Origin: Gammaproteobacteria bacterium
Lineage (GTDB): Bacteria; Pseudomonadota; Gammaproteobacteria; SZUA-140
Direction of reading: 5' to 3'
NCBI GenBank assembly: GCA_026982565.1
Contig: JALSGV010000044.1
Coordinates: 8,506-72,505, forward strand
Length of the DNA stretch: 64,000 nucleotides
How positions within the stretch are numbered: the first letter of the stretch is position 1; every line of letters begins with the position of its first letter. The notes beneath the pieces are model-generated. The model was given only the letters and a program-made list of their open reading frames with translations. It was not told the origin of the DNA and searched no databases. Of the stretch, positions 11,805-53,213 are shown one piece after another. Made by a program: the position numbers and the translations under genes.

Positions 11805-12367
11805 GCCCTCACCCCTTCCAGAGGGTGTCGCAAAAGCCCCTCTCCCGCCGGAGGGTGTTGTAAAAGGTCTTTGCCACTCAATCGCCCCAGCAGCACACCG
11901 GGTAACTGGCTGACATCCACCGGCGGCATGAAGTGGCCCCGGTTCGCCTGCCAGCAGCGGCTGGCCGGGAAGATCGTGCGCCACCACCGGCGCCAACGGG
12001 CAAGCGTCTGTGGATAAAGATCGAGTTGCTCGATCAACTGCTGCCGACGCTTTGCGCTGAGACCATACTCCATGGCCGTCACCAGTATCACCAGGACACC
12101 CAGATAGACCTTGCGCCCGAGAAAACGCACCGATGGCGGGGTGCAGCGGCGCCGGCATCCCTCGGTGGCGCAACAAAAACTCAGGCGCCTCTCATAGGTC
12201 TCATCCAGTGCACAACGGATACCCCGGGGCTTGCGTGGATAATGGGCTACATGCAGCGTACTGCCACAATGAGCGCAGCCTTCTGATTGAGCCTCGTCGG
12301 CGATTTCCTGATCAATACGAAAGAGAAACTGATAAAATCTGGAATCATTGAAAAATGCATGACACAC
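11714..12367 (-). CDS. Cys-rich hypothetical protein (putative zinc-ribbon; CxxC...CC...C); the 3' end reads through the REP element and overlaps the rnt 3' end
   Basis: 217-aa ORF; [19 protein letters not shown]...[11 protein letters not shown]...[17 protein letters not shown] recall it as a conserved hypothetical family but cannot name it. It sits at the core/island junction, next to an AT-rich stretch. Confidence 0.4.
11811..11875. repeat. REP-like element copy 2 (degenerate; GAGGGTGTCG(C/T)AAAAG as two direct half-sites after a CCCTCACCCC leader)
   Basis: ccctcaccccttccaGAGGGTGTCGCAAAAGCCCCTCTCCCGCCGGAGGGTGTTGTAAAAGG; same family as 1551-1604. Confidence 0.6.
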
Positions 12368-14218: not shown

Positions 14219-14970
14219 GTACGCAATCTTCTATTGAATGGACCGAACAGACGTGGAATCCGGTAACAGGATGCACGAAGATATCCCCTGGATGCAAACA
14301 CTGCTATGCCGAAACTATGGCGAGGAGGCTCGAGGCCATGGGTGTTCGTGGATATGAAAATGGTTTCAGCCTTACCCTACTTCCAGAACGCCTGGGTGAA
14401 CCTCTGAAGCGCAGGAAACCGACGGTATATTTTGTTAACTCGATGAGCGACCTGTTCCATGAGGAGATTCCGGATAGCTTTATCCAACAAGTCTTCGATA
14501 TCATCAGACAAACACCTCAACACACCTATCAAATCTTGACCAAACGTGCCTACAGGATGGCGGAATTCTTCGATCATTACACTGCACCTCGAAATGCCTG
14601 GCTTGGCGTTTCAGTCGAAGATAGAAGACACGGTTTACCAAGAATCAAAGCACTCCGTAAAATATCAGCACAGATTCGGTTCTTGTCCGTAGAACCATTA
14701 CTCGAGGATCTTGGGAAAATTGATTTGCGGGATATCCATTGGGTCATTGTCGGAGGCGAATCCGGACCGAAGGCCCGCCCAATGAAGCAAGACTGGGTAA
14801 TCAATGTTCAGCGCCAGTGCGAACAACAAAATGTTGCCTTCTTCTTTAAGCAATGGGGCGGCTGGGGAGCTGACGGCAAAAAACGGGCAAAGAAACAAAA
14901 TGGCAGGACGCTATTAGGAAAGACGTGGGATGAAATGCCGACGCCTACGCTAGGCAATCAGTTTTTATAA
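14215..14970 (+). CDS. Phage Gp37/Gp68-family (DUF5131) three-Cys-motif protein
   Basis: 251 aa; SIEWTEQTWNPVTGCTKISPGCKHCYAETMA is the family's characteristic N-terminal W...WNP.TGC...GC..CYA motif (C-x6-C-x2-C), followed by VEPLLEDLG...VIVGGESGP.ARPM...W. Confidence 0.75.
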   Translation: MSTQSSIEWTEQTWNPVTGCTKISPGCKHCYAETMARRLEAMGVRGYENGFSLTLLPERLGEPLKRRKPTVYFVNSMSDLFHEEIPDSFIQQVFDIIRQTPQHTYQILTKRAYRMAEFFDHYTAPRNAWLGVSVEDRRHGLPRIKALRKISAQIRFLSVEPLLEDLGKIDLRDIHWVIVGGESGPKARPMKQDWVINVQRQCEQQNVAFFFKQWGGWGADGKKRAKKQNGRTLLGKTWDEMPTPTLGNQFL

Positions 14971-14984
14971 ATATCACCCTGATA

Positions 14985-16340
14985 TTGATAGGAGTAATAG
15001 ATTTGCCAAAAAAGGAATATGATTGGCAGCTTGGCGAGGATCCCCCAAAGATTGAACTGCACAGCCTGGCTAAACATCGTGTTTACGAAGAATACCTCCT
15101 CCACTACATCCAGGTACTAAATTCTAATCCAAAGATTCCAAAATTTCGGCTAACACTGATAGACGGCTTCGCCGGCGGCGGCGTCTATCTCGACCCAAGA
15201 AACAATAGCCTATATACCGGGTCGCCACTGCGCCTTATCAAGGCGGCAGAAGCAGCGGCTTCTGCGGTAAATGTCAAACGGCAGCAAGGAGGGGTTCGTA
15301 ACCCTTTTGAACTACAGGCTGAGTATTTCTTCATTGAAAAGAAAAAGTCAAACCATGACTATCTGAACTGGTATCTGCGCGAACAGGGTTTGGGAGAACG
15401 CCTCAATAAGGATATCTTCTCATGGCCGGGTCAGTTCACAAAATTTCTGCCAACATTAATTAGCCGTATTAGCAGCAAAGGGAAAAGTCAACGGTGTATT
15501 TTTTTATTGGACCAATACGGTTATGGAGAAATCCCGTTTCCAGATATTCAAACAATTTTCGCAAAATTGCCCCATGCCGAGATCATATTGACCTTTGCTA
15601 CAGACTGGCTCATCGACTACATGTCAAACAAGCCAGAATATCTCAAAACTCTACAACGAATCGGGATCGCTCATGAGCTAGATATCGATCAATTATTGAA
15701 CTCCAAGAACGACACACCACAATGGCGACAACTAGTCCAATTTGAATTACATAAAGCCATTCCAAAACTCAGTGGCGCACTGCATTACACCCCCTTCTTT
15801 ATTGTGTCACCAGAGGCCAACCGCTCATTCTGGTTAATCCACCTTTCAAACCATCCGCGCGCGCGTGATGTAATGACACAATTGCATTGGCAGCTGAAGA
15901 ATCACTTCACACATTATGGCGGAGCTGGACTCCATATGTTTGGCTACGACCCGATGAAAGATGAACAACTGATCGGCGTGGCCGACATGTTTGGTAATAG
16001 TGAATTTTCCTTTGACAAGATTGCAAGAAAAAGAACTATCGAAGGGATAGTAGAAGAACTTCCACGGCTGATACACCGTTTCGCTGATGGAATTCGGTTT
16101 GATGAGTTCTACCGTTTAGTCGCTAACCAAACACCCGCTACGAGCGACCATATTCGAGAAGGCGCAAATCTATTGGCAGAGATTAAGGAGCTTGAAATTC
16201 TAGGCCCCAATGGAGAAAGACGGCGGAAAGCAAATACTATTACTAATCAAGATATTATTCGACCGCCTCAGCAAAAGACCCTCAGTTTTAGCAATAATGT
16301 GCCACTTGAAAGGAAAAACGAAAAAGCAACTAAAAAGTGA
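14985..16340 (+). CDS. TcmP-like protein, paralogue 2 (longer, C-terminal extension)
   Basis: 451 aa. Shares the HS..KH...Y...Y...D.F.G.G N-terminal architecture with the 13064-14218 product, and has a mid-region FLLDQYGYGEIPF like FFFIDPKGWKNAIEIP in paralogue 1. Confidence 0.55.
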   Translation: MIGVIDLPKKEYDWQLGEDPPKIELHSLAKHRVYEEYLLHYIQVLNSNPKIPKFRLTLIDGFAGGGVYLDPRNNSLYTGSPLRLIKAAEAAASAVNVKRQQGGVRNPFELQAEYFFIEKKKSNHDYLNWYLREQGLGERLNKDIFSWPGQFTKFLPTLISRISSKGKSQRCIFLLDQYGYGEIPFPDIQTIFAKLPHAEIILTFATDWLIDYMSNKPEYLKTLQRIGIAHELDIDQLLNSKNDTPQWRQLVQFELHKAIPKLSGALHYTPFFIVSPEANRSFWLIHLSNHPRARDVMTQLHWQLKNHFTHYGGAGLHMFGYDPMKDEQLIGVADMFGNSEFSFDKIARKRTIEGIVEELPRLIHRFADGIRFDEFYRLVANQTPATSDHIREGANLLAEIKELEILGPNGERRRKANTITNQDIIRPPQQKTLSFSNNVPLERKNEKATKK

Positions 16341-16361: not shown

Positions 16362-19067
16362 TCAATCTGATATTCGCGCAAAACGCTCAAAATCTTTCAA
16401 ATGCCGTGATTCATTGATCTCGTTATGGGGGATCAGCAGGTATTTCCATGGTTTCCCGCCATGTTTTTCCGCATATTCCGAAGCATGCCGACACCACTGG
16501 GCCGCTACCTCAGCTTTGGCCAACGCTTCCGAATCCTGCATGTCGGACTTGGCTTTGGTTTCCACCATATAAATCACACGATCCGTCTCGGCCACGAAAT
16601 CCGGCACGTATTCGGGCTGTTCCGCGCCGTGCTGGTAGTAGGTCTGGAACTGCCCCTTGACAGGCCGGAACCACTTTTCCACGTCGCGCTCCAGGATAAC
16701 GGCGAACCGTCGTTCGCTGTCTGAATCGAACTTTTGTAGTGGATAGAGGCATTTTTTGAACCCACCGAACAGCATCTGCTTGATCCGGCCTTTGTCATCC
16801 ACGGTTTCACGATAATTGCGAACCGGATGCTTTTCCGACGCCGTATAGTTGCAGGGCTTGAGCTGGGTGAATCCGCGGCTGACCTTGACCTCATATCCAG
16901 CCGCTTTTTCCCAGAAATGCTCCATCATCTGGGTATGAATATGCTCGCCGATAAGCCGTCGGTCACGGTCCAATACTGCCTGAGCCTCGTCCTTGGACAG
17001 ATAGCTCAACAGGTGTCGCACAACCTGTCCAGCCAGGTCGTAGAGCAAATCGGCATGTGCGGCATAGTCGATATCGTCGTAGTCAACCAGCGTGTATACG
17101 ACATAATCTTCGAGTCGCTGCTCAGTGATACCCACTTCCGAGGCCAGGGTCTCCTGCTCGTTGGTGCGCAAGTTCTGGATGATCAGCTCCCGATCCACAG
17201 GTTGCAGGTGCAGGCCGCTCAAATCCAGGGTAAAGGGATTGAAGCCCACGGTCACTTCTCCAGTTGGAACCACCGCAATTCGGGGAATATCGATAATCTT
17301 CCGGCTGACAATCTCGGTGGTCCTGGCCACGATCGTTTCCAGATCGACTGCCTCTTTCTCCAACAGCTCACCTTGCATAGGTGTCAGGCGTTCCTTGACC
17401 CGCTCCATGATGGCCTCACGCACATGGGGCTGGTTCAGGGCTGAACTGGTGGGCACCTTGTCATGCTGCTTTTCCAGTTCATGAATCACATCAAGCACCG
17501 CACGGGCCGCCTCCTTTTCCGCTTCCTGGGTGAATACTGGCGCTTCCAGACCTTCTGGCTTGATTTCATACTGTGTTCCACCCGCACTTGTTGCCTTGGG
17601 CTCAGCCAGCCCCAAGGCTTCCTCTGCAGTGGAACCCACGGTGATGCTGATCATCCCCTCGTCATCGTCCGGTGCTTCCAGAATCACCTGTTTGAGTCGG
17701 ATGGGCGAATCTCCCCGGTTGGCCTCGTCGATGATCTCCTGAAAGCGATCATGGGCGATGATATTGAGCCTATCCACCGCACTCGCGCCGGTACGTTTCC
17801 CGTAGGGCAATCGCAAGCCGCGGCCGATGGACTGTTCGATCAAGGTACGCGCATTGGCGGCACGCAACGGCACGATGGTGTAGAGATTGGTAACATCCCA
17901 GCCCTCCTTGAGCATGTTGACGTGGATCACGATCTCAGTCGGCTCCCCCTCGCTCTCCACGGCCAGCAGCCGCTCAATCATCTCCTCTTCCGCCTTGCCG
18001 GTCTTGCTGCTGTCCACCTGGATCACCTTGTCGCGGTAACGGCCCTCGAAGAAGGCCTCGGACTGAATCAACGCCAGTAACTGCGATGCATGCGTGGTAT
18101 CACGGGCGATCACGAGCACGAAGGGTTTGACCGTTTTTACGCTGTTCTGGCGCGCATAGGTCATCAGCTCCACCTTGGTAGCCTCGTGCACACGAATGCC
18201 GTCCTCCAGCTTGATCTTTTCGATCTCCTCCGGCGTATGGCGTTTGGCGTCGAAATCGCGTTGGGTAACTACTGCTGGCTCTTTGACGAAACCGTCCTCC
18301 ATGGCACGAGCCAGGGGATAATCCATCACCACGTTCTTGAACGGCACAGGCCCACGGTTGGATTCCACGAAGGGGGTCGCCGTCAGTTCCAGGCCAAACA
18401 GGGGTTTCAATTCATTGATGGCGCGCACCCCGGCGCTGGCGCGGTAGCGGTGCGACTCATCCATCAGCAGCACCAGATCGGGCAACTCGGCGAGATAATT
18501 GAAGTAGCTGTCCCCCAGGTACTCGGACAGGCGCTTGATACGGGGACTCTTGCCGCCACGCACCTCCGAGTTGATCTTGGAAATATTGAAAATGTTAATC
18601 ACGACAGGCGACAGCAGGCTCAGATTACCCGCGCGCTGTTCATAATTGTCCCCAGTGATGATCTCTGGTGGATAGGCAGCGAACTCGGCGATGCCCTTGA
18701 ACACATACTTGGGTGTGTTGGGGGTAAAGTCCGTGATCAACTTGTCGTAGATGGTCAGGTTCGGCGCCAGCACGAAAAAGTGCTTGAAGCCATGGGCCAG
18801 GTGCAGATAGCTGATAAAAGCCCCCATCAGGCGCGTCTTACCCACACCAGTGGCCAACGCGAAACACAGCGACGGAAACTCCCGCTCGAAATCCTCCAGC
18901 GTGGGGAACTCCGCCTTGAGGATATTTAGCACCGCCTCCAGATCGCGGTCATGGCTGCGCATATCCGGTGCAGTATCCAACGCCCTGGCCAATTTCTCCA
19001 GGGACTCGGCCTGGGGAGGGCGCAGTGACAACCGCCCCTTGATGGAATTCAACACGCGCAGATTCAT
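16362..19067 (-). CDS. res: Type III restriction-modification system restriction subunit (Res; SF2 helicase-like ATPase with C-terminal nuclease)
   Basis: 901 aa. Walker A LATGVGKTRLMG, motif II LVLLMDESHRY, motif III LELTATPF. The start overlaps the mod stop by 4 bp. Confidence 0.85.
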   Translation of the reverse strand: MNLRVLNSIKGRLSLRPPQAESLEKLARALDTAPDMRSHDRDLEAVLNILKAEFPTLEDFEREFPSLCFALATGVGKTRLMGAFISYLHLAHGFKHFFVLAPNLTIYDKLITDFTPNTPKYVFKGIAEFAAYPPEIITGDNYEQRAGNLSLLSPVVINIFNISKINSEVRGGKSPRIKRLSEYLGDSYFNYLAELPDLVLLMDESHRYRASAGVRAINELKPLFGLELTATPFVESNRGPVPFKNVVMDYPLARAMEDGFVKEPAVVTQRDFDAKRHTPEEIEKIKLEDGIRVHEATKVELMTYARQNSVKTVKPFVLVIARDTTHASQLLALIQSEAFFEGRYRDKVIQVDSSKTGKAEEEMIERLLAVESEGEPTEIVIHVNMLKEGWDVTNLYTIVPLRAANARTLIEQSIGRGLRLPYGKRTGASAVDRLNIIAHDRFQEIIDEANRGDSPIRLKQVILEAPDDDEGMISITVGSTAEEALGLAEPKATSAGGTQYEIKPEGLEAPVFTQEAEKEAARAVLDVIHELEKQHDKVPTSSALNQPHVREAIMERVKERLTPMQGELLEKEAVDLETIVARTTEIVSRKIIDIPRIAVVPTGEVTVGFNPFTLDLSGLHLQPVDRELIIQNLRTNEQETLASEVGITEQRLEDYVVYTLVDYDDIDYAAHADLLYDLAGQVVRHLLSYLSKDEAQAVLDRDRRLIGEHIHTQMMEHFWEKAAGYEVKVSRGFTQLKPCNYTASEKHPVRNYRETVDDKGRIKQMLFGGFKKCLYPLQKFDSDSERRFAVILERDVEKWFRPVKGQFQTYYQHGAEQPEYVPDFVAETDRVIYMVETKAKSDMQDSEALAKAEVAAQWCRHASEYAEKHGGKPWKYLLIPHNEINESRHLKDFERFARISD

Positions 19068-20857
19068 TGCTCTTCCTCCCCAAACAGGGCCACCTGTCCG
19101 GGTGCGGTTTTCTTCTTTGACTTCTTCTTAGGTACGGCTGGCTGTTCAGGTTCTGGCTCCAACATTGGGAGATTCTGTACGTTCAAGCTGTAGTCGTCAC
19201 GACCCCATTCGCAACGGGAAAGCACCACTTTGGGAATCTTCTTGATGGTGAGATTGGGCCAGCGCTCCGTCGCTTTTGCCGCGCTGATACCCCGGAAAGC
19301 GCTGCATAGTACCAGCAAGCTGCGGCCTTCACCCACCTCTTCCGCCAGGGCCTGCAACTGGCTCACCGACAGGTTCTGCGTGGTGACATAGATGAAATCC
19401 TGCTCCGTGGAATGGCCGTGCTGCCACCAGACGGTTTCCGACGGCGTATAGGTAAATCCCTCCAGCTTGCACAGCGCCTCGGCCAACATGGCAGCATTGT
19501 ATTCCTTATTGATGACCCAGTTACCCCACTTGTCCTTCTCCAGCAATGAAGGGGCCAGGCGGTAGTAACGGAAACCGCCGCCACCCTTCCACTCATAATT
19601 CTCACTAACTCCAGACTTATCATCCCCATCAATAACTCTCATTAATCTTGGAACTATATGTGTATATGCCTGTTCCCGTAATTCCACTGTAATCCATTTT
19701 CTACCCATTTTATGGGCCACGGCAGAAGTAGTGCCCGACCCACCAAAAGAGTCAAGCACAAGATCACCCGGTTTGGAAAAGTGTTTCAATATTAGCTCTA
19801 ATAGTTTTTCTGGCTTTTTTCCGCCCCGGAAATCCACACCACCTTCATGTCTACAATTACCAAAACTACCAGCCAGATCGAAGAAATTTTGGATTGGTTT
19901 TGCTTTATCCGCCTTCCCTTCTTTTATAGCACTTAATGTTTTCAACGGTATACCTGAGTAAAATTTACCTTTTGTGGCTGTAGATTTTTTTGGACCCGTC
20001 ATGTAACGGTAACCCAATCCATCCTCACCTATTCCATAGACTTTATATAAACATGATAATCCATCTATTTTTTTTCTAGGAGCTAAGTACTTATCAAGAA
20101 ACTCTCCTGAACTTCCAGACTGCCGAACCAAAGACCCTGTTGCCCACGTCTCCTTTAACCCTGTTAAGGATGGCTCTATTTTCTTGATTTCGTATTCTCC
20201 AGGCTTAAATAACACCACCTTCTTTCCACCCAACTCTAGCTCTTCACCATCTGATTTTTCAATTATCATCCATTCAAATTTTTCAATCTTGTAGGGTTCT
20301 TTATCTTTATTCGCCTTCGCCAAATTGCGATCCTTTGCATAGATAAAGCACTGCTCAATTACTTTTTGGTAATCGTTATCTTCTGCAAGAGTTTTATGGC
20401 CATATCTAACTTGAACATAAAATGTCGTTAAATAGTTCGATCTTCCAAAGATCTCATCTAGCAACACTTTAAGATATGCACCTTCACCATCATCTATTTG
20501 ACAACAAAAAAAACCATCATCTGAAAGCAGTCGCCTAAGAGATTCCAAACGATCTCTCATCAAAGATAACCATATTGAGTGCTCTATTCCATCATCGTAG
20601 TTTTCAAAAGCATTTCCGGTATTGTATGGAGGATCGATATAGATACACTTCACCTTGCCCGTAAACTCCTGCTCCAGCGCCTTCAGCGCCAGCAGGTTGT
20701 CACCGAAGATCAGGCGATTGTCGAAAATGTCGTTCTCCGTCACCCGATGCTTGGCGTAATACGACTTATCCGGATCTTCCAGCAGAATCCGCGGTTCCAG
20801 CTTCGGCCGCTTGTCCTTTCCTATCCAGGTGAGTTCCAGTTTTTGTTTCTTGGCCAT
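19064..20857 (-). CDS. mod: Type III restriction-modification system methyltransferase subunit (Mod; beta-class N6-adenine MTase)
   Basis: 597 aa. Motif IV IYIDPPYNTGNAF, motif I VLDSFGGSGTTSAVA near the C-terminus, and a central variable TRD. AT-rich compared with its surroundings. A8/T8 homopolymers at 20506-20513 and 20068-20075. Confidence 0.9.
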   Translation of the reverse strand: MAKKQKLELTWIGKDKRPKLEPRILLEDPDKSYYAKHRVTENDIFDNRLIFGDNLLALKALEQEFTGKVKCIYIDPPYNTGNAFENYDDGIEHSIWLSLMRDRLESLRRLLSDDGFFCCQIDDGEGAYLKVLLDEIFGRSNYLTTFYVQVRYGHKTLAEDNDYQKVIEQCFIYAKDRNLAKANKDKEPYKIEKFEWMIIEKSDGEELELGGKKVVLFKPGEYEIKKIEPSLTGLKETWATGSLVRQSGSSGEFLDKYLAPRKKIDGLSCLYKVYGIGEDGLGYRYMTGPKKSTATKGKFYSGIPLKTLSAIKEGKADKAKPIQNFFDLAGSFGNCRHEGGVDFRGGKKPEKLLELILKHFSKPGDLVLDSFGGSGTTSAVAHKMGRKWITVELREQAYTHIVPRLMRVIDGDDKSGVSENYEWKGGGGFRYYRLAPSLLEKDKWGNWVINKEYNAAMLAEALCKLEGFTYTPSETVWWQHGHSTEQDFIYVTTQNLSVSQLQALAEEVGEGRSLLVLCSAFRGISAAKATERWPNLTIKKIPKVVLSRCEWGRDDYSLNVQNLPMLEPEPEQPAVPKKKSKKKTAPGQVALFGEEEQ

Positions 20858-20866
20858 GATTTACCT

Positions 20867-21427
20867 TTAGAGTGGTTGCGTGAGAGCAGCCATCATCGAA
20901 TTCTTCACTGTTTGCACGTCGGTCTGATTTTCGAAAATTGCCCTTGGCTGTTTGTTCCAGGTGTTCGCCTTTATAACATTGATCAATTCATTCGCAATGG
21001 TGTCGATCGCCACCGAGATTCGCTTTTTCTCATCGTCGGTCAGCGCCAAATCGCCACTCCAGCGCAACTGAGTCTTCAGTAATAGTATATGCAGAATCAG
21101 CCATTTTCCGTGCCGAAGGATTTCGCCATCTTCCTGAGATTCACCTTTGGCACGATCGATGATCGTTTTCTGAACAATGCGGCTTATCTGTACGACACGC
21201 CATAGTTCCCTGGCTGTCAAAGCATCCGAAAAAAGGCGTTCATACGCCTCATCCAATGGCGATCCCGTTGCGGACAGGTCCGGCCGTCTGAACAACCGCT
21301 TTTGATCTTTCTTTGCCGCCACAACAAAGGCAGGCCAGGAGCTGGCTGTTTCGCAACATGCCAGAGCGGGTGCGGCCTCACGAACGCTGAAGACTGCATC
21401 CGATAACGAGGGGGTCATTGTCGCCAT
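20867..21427 (-). CDS. Hypothetical protein (no recognisable domain) downstream of the AIPR gene, overlapping it by about 50 bp
   Basis: 186-aa ORF in the same orientation as AIPR and mod-res. Coding status is uncertain. Confidence 0.35.
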   Translation of the reverse strand: MATMTPSLSDAVFSVREAAPALACCETASSWPAFVVAAKKDQKRLFRRPDLSATGSPLDEAYERLFSDALTARELWRVVQISRIVQKTIIDRAKGESQEDGEILRHGKWLILHILLLKTQLRWSGDLALTDDEKKRISVAIDTIANELINVIKANTWNKQPRAIFENQTDVQTVKNSMMAALTQPL

Positions 21428-22691
21428 GCTTATACAGATACTCGATACCCGTTATAGCCAGTGTCTGTCGCCACGTTTCCTGGCGTTCATCCAGCGCCGA
21501 GAAATCCTCAAGGTCAACCGCGTTCTGGCGGTTACGGTACTGGGTTACCCGTTTGCCAAACTCATCGGGTGCTTGGTCAAGAGAGATGAATGTAACCAGC
21601 ACCTCGGCGGGATGGTCGTCGAAATAGGCTGCATTTTGCTCTGCAATGGTACCAACAGTTTGTGCGCCATTGATGATGGAAATATCACGGACTCGAAAAC
21701 GTCCTTGCTGCCGATCTTGTTGAATCGGCGGTAGCTGCTGAATACTTGAGCAGAGAAATGTCACTCCATTGTTGAAATAGAAGAAATGATCCCATTCTTC
21801 CTGCAAAGTTTTCGCCATGCCGTCATTGACAACAGTCGAGCCCTTGAATCTCCGTATATTTTTCTCGACTATGCGGTCGCCATACTGCTGCTCCAAATTA
21901 GCGAGGTTTTTTGCCGACATTCGCCCATAGAAACCTCGGTACGGGCTTTCAATATAGCCAAAATCGAGCAGATTGACTTCAGTATCTATGGGTTGAGCCG
22001 CTTGATCGTCCAGTTGAAATCCATGGAGGCTTGTCAGCCCTCGCGAATAGCAGCGAAGAAAATCGGGCACCGTAGCATTGTATGTATGTTCGAGGTCTGA
22101 GAATATGTTTCTGCGGTCATCTGATATTGCTCCCCCGGTGTGAGCAAGAACGACTTTGACTCGGTGACCTTCATCTGCCAGGGCGCTTTCAATGGCATGT
22201 CTTTTCTCGTTCAGAGCCTCATTGAAGCGGTCGTATTTTCCAGCCAGAAGATCCACGACACCATCCTTGAACTTGGATACATCCCCCAGGTCAGGTTCAC
22301 CTCTCCCGCTGGAGATATATTTGGATTGAATCAACCATAGTGTTCCGTCCGCGCCAATATAAACAGAATCGATGCCGTGATCGTCACCGCCATCGATGCA
22401 GGCAGCAACGGCTTCTTCTTGAGTGGCCCCTGCTTCATGAGTTAGCACAAAGGCTGCGATAGCTTTGGATAGAAAATTGTTTCGTCGTGCGTCATCATTC
22501 GCACCAATACCTGTAATTAATGCACCAAACTCATTGTCCAATGACTCAGTCAAAAGCCTTAGTTCAAGTGGCGTTCCTTGTGGTGGCATTTTCACGATTC
22601 CCGGATTTCGTAACAAAACAATACCCTGCATTTCCTCTAGCTTGGCTTTGTCAATGGATGCAAACGACGTGTTTCGCCTACCGTTGCCCAA
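21378..22691 (-). CDS. AIPR-family abortive-infection-like protein (restriction-endonuclease-like N-terminal region plus AIPR domain)
   Basis: 437 aa. N-terminal HGIDSVYIGADGTLWLIQSKY (Mrr-cat-like D...QxK) and C-terminal AIPR hallmark ISIINGAQTVGTI (NGxQT). The true start may be the internal Met at 22631, which would remove the 55-bp overlap with the upstream ATPase. Confidence 0.7.
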   Translation of the reverse strand: MGNGRRNTSFASIDKAKLEEMQGIVLLRNPGIVKMPPQGTPLELRLLTESLDNEFGALITGIGANDDARRNNFLSKAIAAFVLTHEAGATQEEAVAACIDGGDDHGIDSVYIGADGTLWLIQSKYISSGRGEPDLGDVSKFKDGVVDLLAGKYDRFNEALNEKRHAIESALADEGHRVKVVLAHTGGAISDDRRNIFSDLEHTYNATVPDFLRCYSRGLTSLHGFQLDDQAAQPIDTEVNLLDFGYIESPYRGFYGRMSAKNLANLEQQYGDRIVEKNIRRFKGSTVVNDGMAKTLQEEWDHFFYFNNGVTFLCSSIQQLPPIQQDRQQGRFRVRDISIINGAQTVGTIAEQNAAYFDDHPAEVLVTFISLDQAPDEFGKRVTQYRNRQNAVDLEDFSALDERQETWRQTLAITGIEYLYKHGDNDPLVIGCSLQRS

Positions 22692-24955
22692 TAGCTGCCA
22701 GATTTACGGTTGCGTGGCCATCCACTATCCGGGTCAACCAGGCTTTCCATCAACGCCAACACTTCTTTTCCAAATGCGAGTGCATCATCATCCAGTAATT
22801 CAAATGACAGCGCATTGAAATGCGCACCAAACAAGTTTCTCGCCTGTATGATTCTTGTAAGTTCATTCAGATGAGGTTCGAGCACCTTCTCGATGTAGGT
22901 CACTGTGCCATCCGGTTCTTCCTTCTTGTGTTCAACTTTCAGAGCCGCCCTAAGCTTCTTGTCAATTGCTGGCAAGAGGTCACCCAAGGTATAACGACCA
23001 CTTGCGCGGCGTGGTACCTGGCACTCGTACGTCACCGTCAGAAATTCGAGTGCGGCCTCGAGGACCACACCTGCTTTTGCGCAAACCAGCTGCACGTCAG
23101 GCGGCGTCTCCTCCAGCAGCATTTTCAATCTTTCAATATCAGGTATGCTTTGAGTGAGGGAGATGCCGCCATCCAACGTCCATTTCTTGAGTTCGACAAA
23201 CTGGCATTGCCCATTTTTCAGCCAACCCCAACGAAACTTCTCTTTCCAGGGACGATAGTGCGTTGTGATGATGCATTGACGGAATTTGTTGGCTTCCTCG
23301 TACAACATTTCAATCAGTCGCTCAACATGAGGCTCATCCACGCTACCGAGCACATCATCTAGAACAAGTATCGTCTCCTCTGGCTTTTCTCTCCGGACCA
23401 GCGACAGGAATACGCAAAGCCCCAAGGTATCCAGATGGGAATCACTGAAATAGGCCTGGGGCGGCGCGCCTCCCTTCCCCAAGAATTCTGCCGAAATATC
23501 CAAAGAGGCCCGCCTCACCGGATCCAGTTCAAGGCTGATTTTATTTAAACCTTCTCCAGGATGAACCTTCTCGTACAACACCCCGACATCATTAGCGATT
23601 TCGTGCAATATATTGTCGGTATATTTCTTTCGCTCAGTTTCTACAATTTCGAGAGCTTTTTTCAACCGCGGCAGTAACACATCGAGTTCCTGCTGGATCT
23701 GACTGTTGGATTCCAAGGTATCGAGTGATGTTTTCAGAGCTTCGATAAACCGCATACTATCCGCGCACTCGTCCGACAGTACCCTCCATTTCCCGATCAG
23801 CTCTTCGCCATTTGCCAGCCACTCTGTCCAGTCATCTACCCTGGCTGGATAAGGCAGGTCTGGTATTGTGATATCAACCGGCAAAGCATCGTCTTTTGTA
23901 GACTCTACAAATTTTTGGGCATCCTGCAAAGCCGTGTTAATCAGTTCATCAAGCTCTCGTTCTTTCTGTTCCAGCGAACTTTCCAACAGCGTCAGTTTGC
24001 GCCTAGCTTCTTTGAGTTGATTGGCAACCACCTGAGACTCGATCCTTTCCGTGACTCTTGCCGGCAGTCCGGCGACCTTCTCCGCACTCTCGCACAGTGG
24101 ACAAACTTCAGGGTCGGGATGATTTTCGAAATGACTCTGCGCAGCATGCAGTATTTCGAGTATCTCGACATATTCCCCAGCTACTTTCTCAGTCAAGCCC
24201 AGAACATGCTGCTTCTGATCTTCAATGGCAGCCTTTATGCTGGATATTTCCTTTTTGCGTGCACAAATTGCTTCTGGATAACTGAGAAGTTTTCGGAATG
24301 TTTCTCGCAATTCATCCAAAGCAGCCCTTGTAGCCTCGACTGATGCCATGTCCCGGGCAACTTCATTCTGCGCCCACTGAATCGCATCATCACCCACCTT
24401 TCCTGCCTGTTCCCAGAAGTTTTCTATCGTATCCCTGTTTTCCTGAACACGTGCAATGGCAACTTCGATCCGGCTTTCGATATCGCGGATAAGCGCACGC
24501 AGATTGGCTTCCGATGCTTCAACACCTGCCACGTCGATAAAGTGGCTGATAGCTGAATAGCGATCAGCTGGTCTTGCTTCGACCAGATTCAGGATTTGAC
24601 TCCTTCGTAATACGTTTACAAGCGGGCGATGATCTTCTGAATCCACCAGTACGTTGCCTTTTTCAAGCGTCGCCTTGCAGCTGCCAGTTGATAGTGTCAG
24701 CGTAACCGAGGTGTCAGACGGCGTTTTGCCAACCGTATGCCAGTATTTACCAGTCCTGTTCAGCCCTCTGTTATCAAGCGAGCCGACCCTGCCGTTGCCG
24801 ATGAAGTCGAATGCGTCACATATTGTTGACTTACCGGTACCGTTCTCACCATATATAAGTGTCAGCTTTTTTCCTTTTTCGAAGGTGAGGGTGAACGGGG
24901 CAACAGCCCCCCTAAGATGATCAATTGTCAGTGATTTTAGAGCACCGCTATTCAT
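22637..24955 (-). CDS. SMC/Rad50/RecF-like ABC ATPase with long coiled coil, CxxC zinc-hook-like motif and an about 200-aa C-terminal domain of unknown function
   Basis: 772 aa. Walker A LIYGENGTGKSTICDA at the N-terminus. Mid-protein HPDPEVCPLCES within a predicted coiled coil. C-terminal signature-like FSDSHLDTLGL, Walker B ILVLDDVLGSVD and H-loop CIITTHY, then an extra domain with no recognisable motif. Confidence 0.75.
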   Translation of the reverse strand: MNSGALKSLTIDHLRGAVAPFTLTFEKGKKLTLIYGENGTGKSTICDAFDFIGNGRVGSLDNRGLNRTGKYWHTVGKTPSDTSVTLTLSTGSCKATLEKGNVLVDSEDHRPLVNVLRRSQILNLVEARPADRYSAISHFIDVAGVEASEANLRALIRDIESRIEVAIARVQENRDTIENFWEQAGKVGDDAIQWAQNEVARDMASVEATRAALDELRETFRKLLSYPEAICARKKEISSIKAAIEDQKQHVLGLTEKVAGEYVEILEILHAAQSHFENHPDPEVCPLCESAEKVAGLPARVTERIESQVVANQLKEARRKLTLLESSLEQKERELDELINTALQDAQKFVESTKDDALPVDITIPDLPYPARVDDWTEWLANGEELIGKWRVLSDECADSMRFIEALKTSLDTLESNSQIQQELDVLLPRLKKALEIVETERKKYTDNILHEIANDVGVLYEKVHPGEGLNKISLELDPVRRASLDISAEFLGKGGAPPQAYFSDSHLDTLGLCVFLSLVRREKPEETILVLDDVLGSVDEPHVERLIEMLYEEANKFRQCIITTHYRPWKEKFRWGWLKNGQCQFVELKKWTLDGGISLTQSIPDIERLKMLLEETPPDVQLVCAKAGVVLEAALEFLTVTYECQVPRRASGRYTLGDLLPAIDKKLRAALKVEHKKEEPDGTVTYIEKVLEPHLNELTRIIQARNLFGAHFNALSFELLDDDALAFGKEVLALMESLVDPDSGWPRNRKSGSYWATVGETRRLHPLTKPS

Positions 24956-25160
24956 CTGACGCCTCCTTGTCTAGCGCTTTTTCTATCAGCAAACGCCAGT
25001 CCTCTGCCCTCAATTTACCTGAAGCTATTTCCCGGGACGTATGCGGAGCATCTTCCTTTAGAATCAATCCCTCATCCAACAATGCGTTGGTTACGATTTC
25101 TGCGAGTTCCTCGGCAGGTGTTTTGTCATTTTCTTCTGCGTCACTCATATGAGCCTCCAT
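24948..25160 (-). CDS. Small acidic hypothetical protein (70 aa) between the SNF2 helicase and the SMC-like ATPase genes, overlapping both ends
   Basis: ORF MEAHMSDAEENDKTPAEELAEIVTNALLDEGLILKEDAPHTSREIASGKLRAEDWRLLIEKALDKEASDE. Overlaps the SNF2 stop by 16 bp and the ATPase start by 8 bp. No homology recognised. Confidence 0.4.
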   Translation of the reverse strand: MEAHMSDAEENDKTPAEELAEIVTNALLDEGLILKEDAPHTSREIASGKLRAEDWRLLIEKALDKEASDE

Positions 25161-28009
25161 TCGATGGTGAACAGGTGCTTTTCCTCTGCCTTTTGCGTGA
25201 GCCGGGCTTCCAACTCAACAATGAGCGCATTGCGCTTTTCTTCTACCTCATCCTGCCGATCAAACAGTTCACGACGTAGCCTGTTGCGCTTCTGTTCCAG
25301 CTCGCGCTGTTGTTTCTGCCAGTCCAGTTTTTCCTCCAGCGTTGGCGCGGTTGCAGCGGTGCGCCGCACTTCCTTGATCTGACGGTCCATTTCCTTGATT
25401 TCCTGTTCCAGCCCTACCTTAAGGTCATCCGCCCAGGCATCGAGCTTTTGGACCTCCTGTTCAAAGTACCCAAGGTTGCGCCGGTTGATGGACTCGGCCA
25501 GTCGGTTTTTTCGTTCGATCAGGTCGGATTCCAGTGCAGGATTAACTGGTAGTGCGCTGATTTGCTCCTGGTGGCTTGCAGGCAGGCGCAGGAGCTTTTC
25601 CGGGTCGTCTTCAGGTAGTACTTCACCACTATCGGTCACGGCAGAAACTACGAGGTGTTGTTCGGTTCCACCAAGAGACTGGATGGTCAGTAGTTCCGCA
25701 ATCAGAACCCCGCTTTTCCCTCGCCAGGCCTCCAGCGTGGTCAGGCGACCGCCTTTCCAGGCGCCATAGTCGAATACCAGTCGTGCCGGAGGCAGATCAC
25801 GGGCTTTGGCCTGTTGCAGCACATACTCGCCCAGGGGATGCCCCAGACGGTAGAGATGGGCGTCACCTGTGCGTCGTGGCAGTTCGTAACGGCCCAACGG
25901 GACGGCATCCCGAAGGCTGTCATCAGGCAGGGACTCGAGAATGAAGCTATTATCGCCGTCGAAGCGGGCATGACGTTTGAGTTCCACCCGGGTGAGGTTC
26001 ATGAATAGCTGTTCGTAACGGTTGCGGGTTTCGAGGCTGTCGATACGGATCTTTTCCAGTACCTGTTCATCGAAATGCTCGAACAGGGCTTCTCTGGTCT
26101 TGACCATGGCCTCGTTGATTTCAGTGGCCAGCTCCAGCTGCAACTGTTCGAAGCTCTTGCGGATGGTTTCGGGATCCCGGCAGCTTTGATAGATATCCGC
26201 GATACGGCGCTCAAAATCCACGCCTGAACCAATGACGCCGAGCACTTCGTCACTGGCACCGAAGACACCGTCGAACAGGCGGAACTTCTGTTCCAGCAGT
26301 TCATAGACCCGGCGATCCGCCTCGTTGGTCAGATCGACGAAGTTCACCACCACGACATCGAACTTTTGCCTGTAGCGGTGGCAGCGGCCGATACGCTGCT
26401 CGATGCGTTGCGGGTTCCAGGGCAGATCGTAGTTGATGACCAGCGAACAGAATTGCAGGTTGATGCCTTCCGCGCCGGCTTCGGTAGCGATCATGATCTT
26501 GCCCTGGTCGCGGAAGTATTCCACCAGTGCGGCGCGGGTGTCGGCGGTTTTTGAGCCGGTGATGCGATCTGAGCCGGCGTGTTTTTCCAGCCAGTCCTTG
26601 TAGACCTGACGTGCTGCCGGATTGTCGTTGGTGCCGTTGAACAGAACGATGCCATCCCCGTAGGCAGTTTCCCTGAGCAGGGACAGAAGATAGTCCTGCG
26701 TACGGCGGGATTCAGTGAAGATCAGTGCCTTGCGCGGTGCGCCAAGTTTGTCGAGTTCCCTGAAAGCGCGATCCAGGGCGGTGATCAGCGCCTTGCCCTT
26801 GGCGTTGTCGCGTATCGCCTTCGCCATGGTCTCGTAGCGGCGCAACTCGGCAATTTCGTCACGAATGGCCTGCTTGTCTTTCTCATCGAGCAGGTTGTTT
26901 GCCAGCTCAATCTCCCACTCCTCGGCTTCTTCATCAAGGGCTTCGTAATCCTTGTCAAGGGAGTCGATGAGTGATTCGGCCGTTTCGGCATCTTCGAGCA
27001 GCTTTTCCAACCGGGCCGCCATGGTACCCAGGGCACCTCCAATGGCATAAGTGGATGACGCCAGCAGCTTCCACAGAACCAACGAGATGAGTTGCCGCTG
27101 GCCACTAGGCAGGGCCTTGAGTTCTGGGCGGCGCAGGTAGTCGGCGACCAGTTCGCGCAGGTGCTGCTCGTCCCTGGTGGGCGTGAACTGCTCCACTAGG
27201 GGAATGCGTTTGGTATAGGCAATGGTGTGGGCCACCTGCTTGCGCAGCGTGCGCTTGCACAGAGGCGCGATGCGGCTGCGCAGCTGCTGGAAGACGGCGT
27301 TGTCGTTCAGCCGCGCATACTGGCGACGAAAACTGTCCAGATCGCCAAACACGCGCTCGTCGATGATACTGACCAGTCCATAGAGCTCCAGCAAGGAATT
27401 TTGCAGTGGAGTAGCGGTGAGTAGCACCTTGGATTTCACGCCGGCCAGCCCATCCTTGAGGGTGTTGGCGATGATATTACCTTTCTTATAGACATTGCGC
27501 AGGCGGTGCGCCTCGTCATAGACCAGCAGATCCCAGGGAACCATGCGCACATTGTCAATCCTGGACTTGGCGAACTGATAGGAGCAGATCACCGGCCGGT
27601 CGGTGTCGAAGGGGTTGAGTACACCTTGTCTCCTGAGCTGGTTGTAGCTCTTGGACTCGAGTATCAAGGAGTCCAGCGCAAATTTGTCCAGTAACTCCTG
27701 ATGCCACTGCTTGCGCAGATTGGCGGGCACGATGATGAGGATGCCACGCTTGCGCTCCGCCCAGAATTGGGCAAGGACGAGGCCGGCTTCGATAGTCTTC
27801 CCAAGACCAACCTCATCAGCCAGGATAACACCACGGGACAAGGGGTTCTGGCATGCGAACAGTGCCGCCTCGACCTGGTGAGGGTTCAAATCAACCTGAG
27901 CATCCATGAGGGTAGATCCCAAGGAATCCACCGAATCACCAGCAGCCCGGCGTGTGAGCTGCCAGGCAAAAAACTGGCTGTGGTAAAGGGTAAGCCCGAG
28001 GTCGTTCAC
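25145..28009 (-). CDS. SNF2-family (Swi2/Snf2) helicase-like ATPase with C-terminal coiled-coil region
   Basis: 954 aa. Motif I ILADEVGLGKTIEA, II LLVYDEAHRLRN, III VLLTATPLQNS, VI EQRIGRCHRYRQK. The C-terminal 130 aa is charged and heptad-like (EEKLDWQKQQRELEQKRNRLRRELF...). Confidence 0.85.
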   Translation of the reverse strand: MNDLGLTLYHSQFFAWQLTRRAAGDSVDSLGSTLMDAQVDLNPHQVEAALFACQNPLSRGVILADEVGLGKTIEAGLVLAQFWAERKRGILIIVPANLRKQWHQELLDKFALDSLILESKSYNQLRRQGVLNPFDTDRPVICSYQFAKSRIDNVRMVPWDLLVYDEAHRLRNVYKKGNIIANTLKDGLAGVKSKVLLTATPLQNSLLELYGLVSIIDERVFGDLDSFRRQYARLNDNAVFQQLRSRIAPLCKRTLRKQVAHTIAYTKRIPLVEQFTPTRDEQHLRELVADYLRRPELKALPSGQRQLISLVLWKLLASSTYAIGGALGTMAARLEKLLEDAETAESLIDSLDKDYEALDEEAEEWEIELANNLLDEKDKQAIRDEIAELRRYETMAKAIRDNAKGKALITALDRAFRELDKLGAPRKALIFTESRRTQDYLLSLLRETAYGDGIVLFNGTNDNPAARQVYKDWLEKHAGSDRITGSKTADTRAALVEYFRDQGKIMIATEAGAEGINLQFCSLVINYDLPWNPQRIEQRIGRCHRYRQKFDVVVVNFVDLTNEADRRVYELLEQKFRLFDGVFGASDEVLGVIGSGVDFERRIADIYQSCRDPETIRKSFEQLQLELATEINEAMVKTREALFEHFDEQVLEKIRIDSLETRNRYEQLFMNLTRVELKRHARFDGDNSFILESLPDDSLRDAVPLGRYELPRRTGDAHLYRLGHPLGEYVLQQAKARDLPPARLVFDYGAWKGGRLTTLEAWRGKSGVLIAELLTIQSLGGTEQHLVVSAVTDSGEVLPEDDPEKLLRLPASHQEQISALPVNPALESDLIERKNRLAESINRRNLGYFEQEVQKLDAWADDLKVGLEQEIKEMDRQIKEVRRTAATAPTLEEKLDWQKQQRELEQKRNRLRRELFDRQDEVEEKRNALIVELEARLTQKAEEKHLFTIEWRLI

Positions 28010-28077
28010 TATTTCTATTCCGGTATTGTCATTTCCGTTTCAGATTCGCATCCCACATCATTTTACATTCAACTACA

Positions 28078-29331
28078 TCATGTCTCCCAAAGACATCGGA
28101 TTGGCACCGCGTACAAGCCCTCTCCAAAGGGCATCGTGGCTTCACCGTCGTATAGCACTATCCCTCCGACAAATCGTTGAGCAGCAGCCTGCTTGAGTCT
28201 GCGCAGTCCTCGAAAATCTGAGGCCGTTACCGTGGCCGCTGCCTTGATCTCGACACCGGCAACCCGCTGGCCGCTCGTTTCCAGCACGATATCCACTTCG
28301 GCGCCATCCTTGTCGCGGAAATGGTGAAAGTTGACGGTATCTTCCCACCCGCTTGCCTGGCGGCGTAATTCCTGAAACACGAAAGTTTCCAATAGCTGGC
28401 CCAGCAGCGCACGATCGGACTTCAGTGCCGCCACGTCTACCCCCAGCAACGCACAGGCAAGGCCGGTGTCACCCAAGTGCAGCTTGGGGGTCTTGATCAA
28501 GCGTCGCAGGCGGTTGCTGTGCCAGGATGGCAGTTCCTCCAGCAGGAATACCCGTGTCAGCAGCGTGATGTAGTCGCGTATGGTCTGCCGGCTGAGCTGG
28601 AATGGCGATGCCAGATCACTCACGTTGAGCAGCCGGGCGGTCTGTCCGGCGGCCAGCATCAACAAACGCGGCAAGGCATCCAGTAACCGGATACGCGCCA
28701 GATCCCGTACGTCGCGCTGCACTAGCGTCTCGATGTAATCGCGGTACCAAGCGGCCCGCCGGCGTGGAGCCAGGCGGGCAAGCGCCGCAGGATAGCCGCC
28801 TGCGACGATCCGTTCGGGCAGCTCGTCGCCGAGACGAGGCCAGTTACCCATTTCGAATCCCGCCCCGAACAGCGTGTTCAGAAACGTGGGTGGCGTTCTC
28901 GTCAGCTCCACCTGGGCTAACGGGTGCAGTCGCAGGATCTCCATGCGCCCCGCCAGGGAATCAGCGAGTTTCGGTACCAACAGCACGTTGGCAGAGCCGG
29001 TGAGCAGGAACCGGCCCGGTGTGCGGTCGCGGTCCACGGTGCTTTTCAGGGCAGTGAATAGTTCGGGAACCCGCTGCACCTCATCGAGAATGGCCCGCTC
29101 CGGCAGATCCCCGGCAAAACCCACCGGGTCCTCCCGAGCAGCGGCAAGCGCAACATCATCATCGAAACTGAAGTACGCACAACCCCTCGCCTCACCCACC
29201 ATACGCGCCAATGTGGTCTTGCCACACTGGCGCGGCCCGTGGATCAGAACGACAGGTGTATCGGCCAGCGCCTCATCGAGGCGCGGCTCCACCAGGCGGG
29301 GGTAAATTGCAGGATTGGCCATACCGGCCAA
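28078..29331 (-). CDS. AAA+ ATPase of the DUF4143/AAA_14 (COG1373) family
   Basis: 417 aa. Walker A VLIHGPRQCGKTTLAR. Typical length and architecture. High-GC, core-like composition. Confidence 0.8.
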   Translation of the reverse strand: MAGMANPAIYPRLVEPRLDEALADTPVVLIHGPRQCGKTTLARMVGEARGCAYFSFDDDVALAAAREDPVGFAGDLPERAILDEVQRVPELFTALKSTVDRDRTPGRFLLTGSANVLLVPKLADSLAGRMEILRLHPLAQVELTRTPPTFLNTLFGAGFEMGNWPRLGDELPERIVAGGYPAALARLAPRRRAAWYRDYIETLVQRDVRDLARIRLLDALPRLLMLAAGQTARLLNVSDLASPFQLSRQTIRDYITLLTRVFLLEELPSWHSNRLRRLIKTPKLHLGDTGLACALLGVDVAALKSDRALLGQLLETFVFQELRRQASGWEDTVNFHHFRDKDGAEVDIVLETSGQRVAGVEIKAAATVTASDFRGLRRLKQAAAQRFVGGIVLYDGEATMPFGEGLYAVPIRCLWET

Positions 29332-50380: not shown

Positions 50381-50452
50381 CCACCTGCAACAAATCCAGA
50401 AACACCCATAAAACCGCTCGGCAGTGAAGAAGGAATACGCAAGGATAAATAA

Positions 50453-53178: not shown

Positions 53179-53213
53179 TGTCACAATTCATAAGCAGGAT
53201 CCAGAACACTTAA

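Follow-up and report, generated by a model that had tools for sequence, protein, structure and literature searches.

In a 64,000-nucleotide stretch of contig JALSGV010000044.1 from a Gammaproteobacteria bacterium of lineage SZUA-140 (assembly GCA_026982565.1), referred to throughout as the window, three overlapping genes encoding an SNF2-family helicase, a small protein and a Rad50/SMC-class ATPase belong to what is probably a composite operon (positions 16362–28009), made up of a restriction scaffold and, embedded within it, an abortive-infection RNase cassette gated by the ATPase. The scaffold would consist of the DrmD-like SNF2 protein together with Mod and Res of a Type III restriction-modification (R-M) system, providing methylation-based restriction of DNA and offering its gene junctions as insertion slots. 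The slot between SNF2 and Mod would hold the cargo, namely an autonomous module of small protein and ATPase along with a frameshifted AIPR gene. An earlier note on this DNA had taken the three overlapping genes for a candidate defence system in their own right. Our account is built on the organization of the genes and its conservation across genomes, the exchangeability of the cargo, the folds of the encoded domains and the conservation of residues of catalytic type. We hold the gene organization and the domain assignments with high confidence. That the cassette functions as an abortive-infection RNase, which is argued by analogy, we consider somewhat better supported than an even bet would be, and what we propose, again by analogy, about the trigger and about the roles of the small protein and of SNF2 is offered with low confidence.

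Gene organization of the operon

The three open reading frames (ORFs) described in the earlier note were confirmed as co-oriented, overlapping genes on the minus strand (Table 1). The TGA stop codon of the SNF2 gene shares bases with an ATG at 25148 (ATGA), and a GGAGG sequence lies five bases ahead of that ATG; because of this overlap and the preceding GGAGG, a small protein of 66 amino acids (aa) is likelier than the 70 aa previously given, and 66 aa is also the length in an independent gene call for this contig. The stop codon of the small ORF in turn overlaps the ATG of the ATPase gene by 8 nucleotides (nt), with AAGGAGG upstream of the ATPase start. Equally dense packing extends past the ATPase gene, with a 5-nt gap to the AIPR gene, a 9-nt gap between AIPR and Mod and a 4-nt overlap of Mod and Res, and from 28009 to 16362 the genes, six in all, have the appearance of a single transcription unit. 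A scan of 16–29.8 kb for promoters and terminators gave no signal exceeding that expected from shuffled sequence. A tRNA scan found zero tRNA genes, and there is therefore no obvious integration site. With more than 70 species-level genomes of many phyla showing it, the arrangement is far beyond chance.

Table 1. Genes, domains and motifs between positions 16362 and 28009 of the window
Feature	Position	Strand	Remarks
SNF2-family helicase	25145..28009	-	954 aa, GTG start; scaffold gene, partner of Mod and Res
Small helical protein	24948..25148	-	66 aa from ATG 25148; 70 aa if ATG 25160
Rad50/SMC-class ABC ATPase	22637..24955	-	772 aa; coiled coil, zinc hook, C-terminal HEPN domain
Walker A, GENGTGKST	24824..24850	-	ATPase residues 36-44, by translation
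CPLC zinc-hook motif	24092..24103	-	ATPase residues 285-288, by translation
HEPN-fold domain, predicted RNase effector	22721..23143	-	ATPase residues ~605-745
Rx5H putative HEPN catalytic motif, R706-N-L-F-G-A-H712	22820..22840	-	partner acidic residue E633; by translation
AIPR (AbiU-like) gene	20867..22631	-	Pfam AIPR 5e-36; second embedded cargo, frameshifted
Type III Mod methyltransferase	19064..20857	-	597 aa; PADLOC MTase_III 8e-179; scaffold gene
Type III Res subunit	16362..19067	-	901 aa; PADLOC REase_III 5.5e-215; scaffold gene

The SNF2 and Type III proteins

Translation of the SNF2 gene bore out helicase motifs I (DEVGLGKT) and II (DEAH), and Pfam places SNF2-rel_dom at residues 50–265 and Helicase_C at residues 439–546. 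The core of the protein is nearest to DrmD of DISARM (PADLOC model PDLC02619, 1e-198, covering residues 32–654 only), and the NCBIfam model DISARM_DrmD_b scores 665 bits, under its cutoff of 950. The last 290 aa have no library match and consist of a family-specific C-terminal globular domain and a coiled coil.

Mod has DPPY (by translation) and FGGSG motifs, a variable central recognition region and the Pfam domain N6_N4_Mtase, and Res combines a superfamily 2 (SF2) helicase (Pfam ResIII) with a C-terminal PD...ExK nuclease, for which PDFVAET...VETKAK is present in the translation. The two genes are adjacent and co-oriented and carry the motifs by which Type III R-M is defined, and their products are predicted to be the enzymes of such a system.

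Conserved neighbourhoods and exchangeable cargo

Neighbourhoods anchored on the ATPase were surveyed in 80 loci, one genome per species, from Proteobacteria, Verrucomicrobiota, Acidobacteriota, Planctomycetota, Chloroflexota, Firmicutes and Cyanobacteria, and counts were made over the loci with enough flank. SNF2 lies directly upstream of the ATPase gene and co-oriented with it in 69/70 loci, so that the three genes are conserved together across genomes, as the earlier note would lead one to expect. Downstream, also co-oriented, follow Mod (54/57) and Res (53/57), and the usual order is SNF2, small protein, ATPase, Mod, Res. Minimal five-gene loci, with gaps of ~185, 12 and 20 nt, are common, and the loci of Cupriavidus, Steroidobacter and an Opitutaceae metagenome-assembled genome (MAG) read SNF2, 58-aa ORF, ATPase, (AIPR), Mod, (RhuM), Res. 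Exceptions to this order are L039, L060, L079 and L084: housekeeping genes stand upstream of the pair of small protein and ATPase in L039, and L060, from an Alphaproteobacteria MAG, keeps SNF2, small protein and ATPase and has DarT/DarG in place of Mod and Res. The DarT–DarG genes of the latter locus (10127–11823) encode a single-stranded DNA ADP-ribosyltransferase toxin and a macrodomain antitoxin, and are followed by housekeeping genes.

A reciprocal survey anchored on Res removed the bias that comes with anchoring on the ATPase. It comprised 80 metagenome loci whose Res is 58–78% identical to that of the window; counts of SNF2 and ATPase need at least 9.5 kb of upstream sequence, and the counts were confirmed with a profile hidden Markov model (HMM). 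Mod is present in 60/60 loci with enough flank and SNF2, whatever the cargo, in 23/26, whereas the ATPase is present in only 6/26 (or in 8/46 if loci with at least 6 kb upstream are counted). From these figures it follows that the stable unit is SNF2, Mod and Res. Type III R-M, which had been taken for a neighbour only, is the partner of SNF2, and the small protein and ATPase are one of several alternative embedded cargos.

These counts bear directly on the proposal of the earlier note that SNF2, a small acidic protein and an SMC-like ATPase make up a self-contained trio of motor, DNA-mimic regulator and sensor, to which AIPR and Type III R-M are only neighbours. The proposal could draw on the stop/start overlaps that join the three genes, on the near-constant position of SNF2 in the ATPase-anchored loci and on L060, in which the three are retained without Mod and Res. 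Yet SNF2 stays with Mod and Res in loci from which the ATPase is absent, and there keeps its C-terminal region at full length; the pair occurs without SNF2 in L085, L086 and L039; and the packing of genes is just as tight on through AIPR, Mod and Res. A break in base composition between SNF2 and the small gene and the variable charge of the small protein, both described below, also speak against it. As a functional unit the trio is already largely contradicted, and we now regard it as very unlikely.

The gap between SNF2 and Mod ranges from 0.1 to 5.7 kb in the Res-anchored loci. When the ORFs in this gap were clustered, AIPR was found in 14 loci and the small protein and ATPase in 8, these last two never apart. 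Other cassettes recognized there with PADLOC and Pfam are IetA+IetS, Ppl, GmrSD/HEC-06 and PD-T4-4, as well as an Old-like ATPase-Toprim protein, a Type IIG R-M enzyme and a GHKL ATPase. SNF2 abuts Mod with nothing between in L155, and the closest scaffold relative, L088 (Res 78% and SNF2 77.5% identity), carries AIPR and a Type IIG enzyme without the ATPase. The Mod–Res junction is a second slot, often occupied by RhuM. Cassettes embedded in this way are known from Hma, BREX, DISARM and Type I R-M (‘guilt by embedding’, Payne et al. 2024; 10.1101/2024.01.29.577857), and the pair has the properties of such cargo, being co-oriented with the conserved host genes between which it lies, replaceable by known systems and represented by non-embedded copies (L085, L086, L039).

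Complete known systems in the SNF2–Mod gap (IetAS, Ppl, GmrSD/HEC-06, PD-T4-4 and a Type IIG R-M enzyme) occupy 3148–6503 of L090, 4291–7089 of L105, 5275–6993 of L108, 5600–7006 of L112 and 3527–6664 of L088. Two gap families are unassigned, F7, which is ~1030 aa long and bears an ABC ATPase C-lobe, and F9, a GHKL ATPase, and a search of this scaffold may turn up more embedded defence candidates.

Base composition divides the genes of the window in a corresponding manner. The G+C content at third codon positions (GC3) is 0.69 for SNF2 and 0.70 for Res, with the flanking DUF4143 gene also at 0.69–0.70, and is lower for the small gene (0.46), the ATPase gene (0.51), AIPR (0.45) and Mod (0.48), the break falling exactly between SNF2 and the small gene. 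The resulting mosaic has a low span at 19064–25148 and high spans at 16362–19067 and 25145–29331. The pattern suggests that a donor of lower G+C content supplied both the cargo and the Mod specificity gene, exchanged as one cassette. The AIPR gene of the cassette is split by a frameshift near 21411/21412: the intact 580-aa homologue in L088 aligns to it with residues 2–400 in frame −3 and residues 400–580 in frame −1. The identical split is found in two independent assemblies, and is therefore probably a real pseudogene or a slippage site and not an assembly error.

The pair is also found away from the scaffold. Full-length homologues of the ATPase, with 31% identity, are encoded on plasmids of the Bacteroidota Fibrella and Hymenobacter (L085, L086) that have no SNF2 or Type III R-M genes; they lie among defence-like genes, each after an overlapping ORF of 79–81 aa that can be aligned to the small protein of the window.

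The ATPase and its HEPN domain

Translation likewise upheld the motifs reported earlier for the ATPase. Walker A (GENGTGKST), CPLC, Walker B (ILVLDD, residues 528–533) and the H-loop (TTHY, H566) are all present, and YFSDSHLD stands with them among the conserved ABC motifs. Pfam matches are to SMC_N, AAA_23 and AAA_13, the last with 47 bits over residues 272–591 only, which take in coiled coil and C-lobe but stop short of the nuclease region, and PADLOC gave weak matches to LmuB (the best, at 5e-27) and mad3. Within Walker A, residues G36, E37, N38, G41, K42 and T44 are invariant in alignment A2 and the other three positions are conserved at 90% or more; C285, P286 and C288 are invariant in 24 homologues, and CPLC is kept even in the Bacteroidota homologues of 31% identity. 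In an AlphaFold2 (AF2) model of the full-length protein (predicted local distance difference test, 76.8), residues 1–140 and 470–565 form the ABC head and residues 143–278 and 297–464 form antiparallel helical arms, with CPLC in the apical loop between helices 260–278 and 297–306 and an extra C-terminal domain beyond the head. The best Foldseek matches for head and arms are Rad50 (7zr1, 1e-13), an SMC head (5xei), LmuB (9hqx), condensin, RecN and JetC.

The earlier note had found no recognizable motifs in the C-terminal 200 aa of the ATPase. This region has a HEPN fold and contains, at R706 to H712, the Rx4-6H signature that is the HEPN catalytic motif (PMC3710099). Judged by sequence, E633 appears to be the counterpart of the acidic residue in the first helix of HEPN, and R-N-x2-G-x-H a version of Rx4-6H. 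When conservation was computed over 96 full-length representatives of 50%-identity clusters, the best-conserved positions of the domain were G629 (100%), E633 (100%), R706 (99%), N707 (97%), G710 (99%) and H712 (99%). That the residues of catalytic type are the best-conserved ones is what an active RNase would lead one to expect, and the C-terminal ~200 aa are most likely an active HEPN RNase, as predicted from these residues. The family is large: there are at least 953 homologues of the ATPase, the 120 best listed being 720–777 aa long (nearly all 764–777 aa) and 53–81% identical, and a profile of the HEPN domain finds at least 584 clusters at 50% identity (E≤1e-3), in which the domain is nearly always C-terminal in a protein of 750–790 aa. 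The earlier analogy with an SMC sensor serving a helicase motor misses this predicted effector, which the ATPase itself carries and which points to abortive infection of the RloC/PrrC type.

The ATPase could instead be an SMC- or Rad50-like factor that acts on DNA much as Lamassu or Wadjet proteins do, or it could serve DNA repair; the C-terminal domain would then be a non-catalytic binding module, and any defence would be directed at DNA and not at RNA. LmuB models are indeed its best PADLOC matches, Rad50, SMC and LmuB are its closest structures, and some HEPN domains are non-catalytic (PMC3710099). We nevertheless consider this explanation improbable: no LmuA- or LmuC-like gene is present in the window or in related loci, the ATPase has no Mre11/SbcD-like or kleisin companion, and the HEPN residues of catalytic type are conserved at 97–100% in the 96 representatives.

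The small protein

The small protein has no match in Pfam, NCBIfam, PADLOC or PHROGs, and a profile search of the PDB with its family gave chance-level matches only, with no relative among them. An ORF of the right size adjoins the ATPase start in 71/78 loci, and 67 of these ORFs satisfy a filter for the D-W motif. The small protein also precedes the ATPase in all eight of the Res-anchored loci that carry one (8/8), as it does the 31%-identity relatives in L085, L086 and L169. From this distribution of sequences, it appears to be an obligate partner of the ATPase. Its core of ~58 aa is predicted to be helical; D-W is invariant in it, and one Gly and two Leu residues are nearly so.

The earlier note had described this ORF as encoding a highly acidic protein of 70 aa and suggested that it might mimic DNA. 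The ORF is real, as set out above, but its acidity is peculiar to the window copy, whose net charge of −11, owed in part to an N-terminal extension, is an outlier, given that 67 homologues run from −7 to +4 with −1 as their median. Since acidity is not conserved across the family, a conserved DNA-mimic function is unlikely, and a role of this kind was rejected.

A second family of small ORFs (76–80 aa), unrelated to the D-W protein, recurs within the SNF2–Mod interval (L002, 9590–9820; L096, 2593–2835; L113, 4495–4737; L108, 7048–7278). In several loci it sits between SNF2 and the D-W protein, where the gap is then ~414 nt and not ~185 nt, and in L108 it lies just upstream of Mod.

Working model

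The mechanism that we propose is modelled by analogy on two proteins. One is RloC, a wobble-nucleotide-excising anticodon nuclease (Davidov & Kaufmann 2008; Klaiman et al. 2012) that its zinc hook and its DNA-dependent ATPase switch between states (PMC2610378, PMC3458546). The other is PrrC, an ABC-ATPase-HEPN protein with its gene in the Type Ic R-M system EcoprrI; it is the model case of a latent suicide RNase guarding restriction (PMC3710099, PMC3632139) and is silenced by its R-M system (PMC3710099). In our model, Mod and Res would restrict unmethylated DNA, probably with the help of SNF2. The ATPase would dimerize through its zinc hook and ATP-engaged heads in a manner that holds two HEPN domains inactive, and would be switched by a DNA-level sign that restriction has failed or been overwhelmed, such as DNA ends, damage, or the loss of R-M or SNF2 to a phage anti-restriction factor; triggers of this sort have been proposed for RloC and PrrC. 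Head engagement that depends on both ATP and DNA would then pair the HEPN domains into an active RNase, a step in keeping with the normal action of HEPN RNases, as dimers that share a composite site. The target would most likely be tRNA or other RNAs of translation, with a halt to translation and an aborted infection as the outcome, and the small protein may be a stoichiometric regulator that acts as a silencer, a latch or an adaptor.

A more specific version, which we offer tentatively and to which we give rather less than an even chance, is that the pair, with at least 584 clusters at 50% identity, is a widespread and undescribed system of abortive infection that has specialized in guarding an undescribed SNF2 and Type III scaffold. 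Here the zinc-hook ATPase would sense DNA ends that Res or SNF2 had produced or failed to process, or the loss of R-M to anti-restriction proteins of a phage. Head engagement driven by ATP would pair two HEPN domains as an active tRNase, with the D-W protein as release latch. The whole would be to Type III R-M what PrrC is to EcoprrI, and would draw on an independent protein family.

Several points weigh against reading the operon as a scaffold with an RNase cassette as its cargo. RNase activity, substrate and trigger are all things that we infer, and the role of SNF2 is left unexplained. The spacing of the RloC triad, R-x3-E-x36-52-H (PMC2610378), is not reproduced, E633 lying 79 residues ahead of H712 and Gly occupying position −4. 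ATPases of 40% identity or more hardly ever occur away from the SNF2/Type III scaffold. A very divergent SNF2–methyltransferase–Res array on an IMG/VR contig classified as viral (L169, 6440–16676) includes an ATPase of 31% identity together with SNF2 (49%), a 73-aa ORF, a methyltransferase (26%) and a Res-like protein (22%), all in the same order. This exclusivity and the L169 array argue for a dependence tighter than that of ordinary cargo, and perhaps for a five-protein machine. L169 is also the sole match in the viral collection, and a distant one; the module is therefore not typically phage-borne.

In such an integrated ‘Type III-plus’ machine, SNF2, the small protein, the ABC-HEPN ATPase, Mod and Res would work in one complex of which the ATPase is a constitutive subunit. 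Because the divergent L169 array keeps the same order, the link of the pair to SNF2/R-M scaffolds is old or recurrent, and it is on this account that we retain the alternative; the minimal five-gene loci, which lack other cargo, and the conceptual parallel of systems that combine a HEPN-DUF499 ATPase with a helicase and a methyltransferase (PMC12839542) are in keeping with it as well. Still, about three quarters of the close relatives of the scaffold lack the ATPase and carry unrelated, self-sufficient defence systems instead, stand-alone pairs exist, and the composition of the window suggests a recent replacement of the cassette, for which reasons we judge the integrated machine to be unlikely, though the most credible of the alternatives. 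The composite operon, in which an exchangeable RNase cassette is embedded in a restriction scaffold, remains our preferred reading.

Were this reading to prove correct, a sizeable unannotated family would join the suicide RNases gated by ABC ATPases, one whose HEPN domain and small partner are invisible to Pfam, NCBIfam, PADLOC and PHROGs. It would provide a second natural case, beside PrrC-EcoprrI, in which to dissect the coupling of a restriction enzyme to a back-up RNase, and would bring into such coupling a Rad50-like zinc hook that may read DNA ends. A Type III lineage with a dedicated DrmD-like SNF2 protein would constitute a new scaffold with two slots for defence genes, extending ‘guilt by embedding’ beyond the systems for which it has been described and supplying a source of candidates, and would offer a handle on the function of DrmD-type SNF2 proteins. 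As regards annotation, the trio does not warrant an entry as a three-gene system of its own.

Other genes of the window

The three genes are defence-island genes, which bears out the link to defence made in the earlier note. Adjoining Res on the plus strand (13064–16340) is a triplet of genes encoding TcmP (three-Cys-motif partner), DUF5131 and TcmP, with a low G+C content of 0.44–0.48. The DUF5131 gene is Gp37/Gp68-like and weakly matches, with a score under the cutoff, the NCBIfam model of radical-SAM mobile pair protein A, and a Peptidase_S24 gene lies beside the triplet on the source contig. The triplet may be another mobile or defence-associated module of the island. On the other side, 68 nt upstream of SNF2 and co-oriented with it, is a gene for an AAA_14/DUF4143 ATPase (28078–29331, minus strand; PADLOC candidate PDC-S01, 3e-168). 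It is not conserved beside SNF2 elsewhere, with one distant match, in L008.

Among the remaining window ORFs, those scanned are housekeeping, non-ribosomal peptide synthetase (NRPS)/phosphonate and polysaccharide-export genes. A 1035-aa ORF (1684–4791, minus strand) encodes an E2-E3 fusion with lipoyl domains, an E3-binding domain, a 2-oxoacid dehydrogenase acyltransferase and a dihydrolipoyl dehydrogenase, the E3 part being complete (Pyr_redox_2 and dimerization domain). A secondary-metabolite cluster at 48452–57386 (plus strand) encodes a stand-alone protein with adenylation and peptidyl carrier protein (PCP) domains, an enzyme like thiamine pyrophosphate-dependent decarboxylases, a phosphoenolpyruvate mutase and an NRPS with condensation, adenylation, PCP and thioesterase domains, which suggests a phosphonate-containing peptide as its product.

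Comparison with known systems

No HMM library tried (PADLOC, Pfam, NCBIfam, PHROGs) assigns the trio to a named system, in agreement with the earlier note. Several such systems share individual features with the operon.

The ATPase is most like RloC. It has the ABC motifs and, splitting the head, a coiled-coil insert with a central CxxC zinc hook, followed by a predicted C-terminal RNase domain of the HEPN type, and at 772 aa it lies within the range of RloC orthologues (658–897 aa). Some RloC genes are located in Type I or Type III R-M loci (PMC2610378); linkage to R-M is rare for RloC, whereas for the family of the window ATPase it is almost constant. The obligate small partner is not described for RloC. 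PADLOC v2.0.0, in which the presence of RloC and PrrC models is unconfirmed, gave no match of this kind for the C-terminal half of the ATPase or for the HEPN domain (E≤10), and NCBIfam gave no RloC or PrrC match for the ATPase. On sequence grounds we would place the protein in a distinct ABC-HEPN family of RloC-like architecture, membership of RloC proper not being shown.

PrrC offers the precedent of an ABC-ATPase-HEPN gene within an R-M operon; it differs in being half the size, in having neither coiled coil nor zinc hook, and in its host system, which is Type Ic and not Type III with SNF2. ABC-HEPN proteins are often encoded in R-M operons beside RhuM-like genes (PMC3710099), and RhuM likewise occupies the Mod–Res slot of many Type III and SNF2 loci.

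Hma (Type-1 BR) systems comprise an SNF2-type helicase, a DUF1156 N6-methyltransferase and a DUF499 ATPase that is often fused to HEPN (PMC12839542). They share with the window operon the logic of helicase, methylase and ATPase, with a ‘last-resort’ HEPN RNase carried by the ATPase, and the embedding of co-oriented cassettes. However, HmaC is a STAND/AAA+ protein of the DUF499 type and not an ABC/SMC ATPase, the methylase is of the DUF1156 type and not a Type III Mod, and the window operon has a separate nuclease-helicase, Res. The HmaA model matches SNF2 weakly (3e-46, compared with 1e-198 for DrmD), and neither HmaC nor HmaB is among the 25 best PADLOC matches for the ATPase and for Mod. The operon was therefore rejected as an Hma system on account of its ATPase and the type of its methylase.

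With DISARM, the likeness is confined to DrmD: the SNF2 core is nearest DrmD_b and is also paired with a methylase of the adenine type, but its C-terminal 290 aa differ and its partner is the Type III Mod/Res pair. Class 1 DISARM was rejected, since the SNF2 score does not reach the DrmD_b cutoff and the window proteins that were scanned include no DrmA (helicase), DrmB (DUF1998) or DrmC (PLD); DrmMI is not among the top matches of Mod. MADS was rejected as well, its mad3 (4e-15) and mad8 (2e-5) matches being weak and no other mad genes being found. Lamassu comes closest through LmuB, which is the best defence-HMM match of the ATPase and one of its structural matches and has a comparably short coiled coil; the difference is that the predicted effector of the window ATPase is fused to it as a C-terminal HEPN domain. 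Lamassu, Wadjet, PARIS, Septu and Gabija were all rejected, the similarity being at the level of the P-loop or partial to LmuB and the partner genes being absent.

Mod and Res themselves resemble those of classical Type III R-M (the EcoP15I-type Mod2Res), Mod in its DPPY and FxGxG motifs and variable region and Res in its SF2 helicase and PD-ExK nuclease, and the lineage found here differs from the classical form in its dedicated upstream SNF2 helicase gene and two cargo slots. In the literature library that could be searched, we found no published description of the pair, or of a Type III lineage with SNF2 and slots, which is not in itself proof of novelty. By analogy with these precedents, the cassette is most likely of a known kind, an ATPase-gated HEPN suicide RNase embedded in an R-M system, which is here carried in a scaffold of Type III R-M and SNF2.

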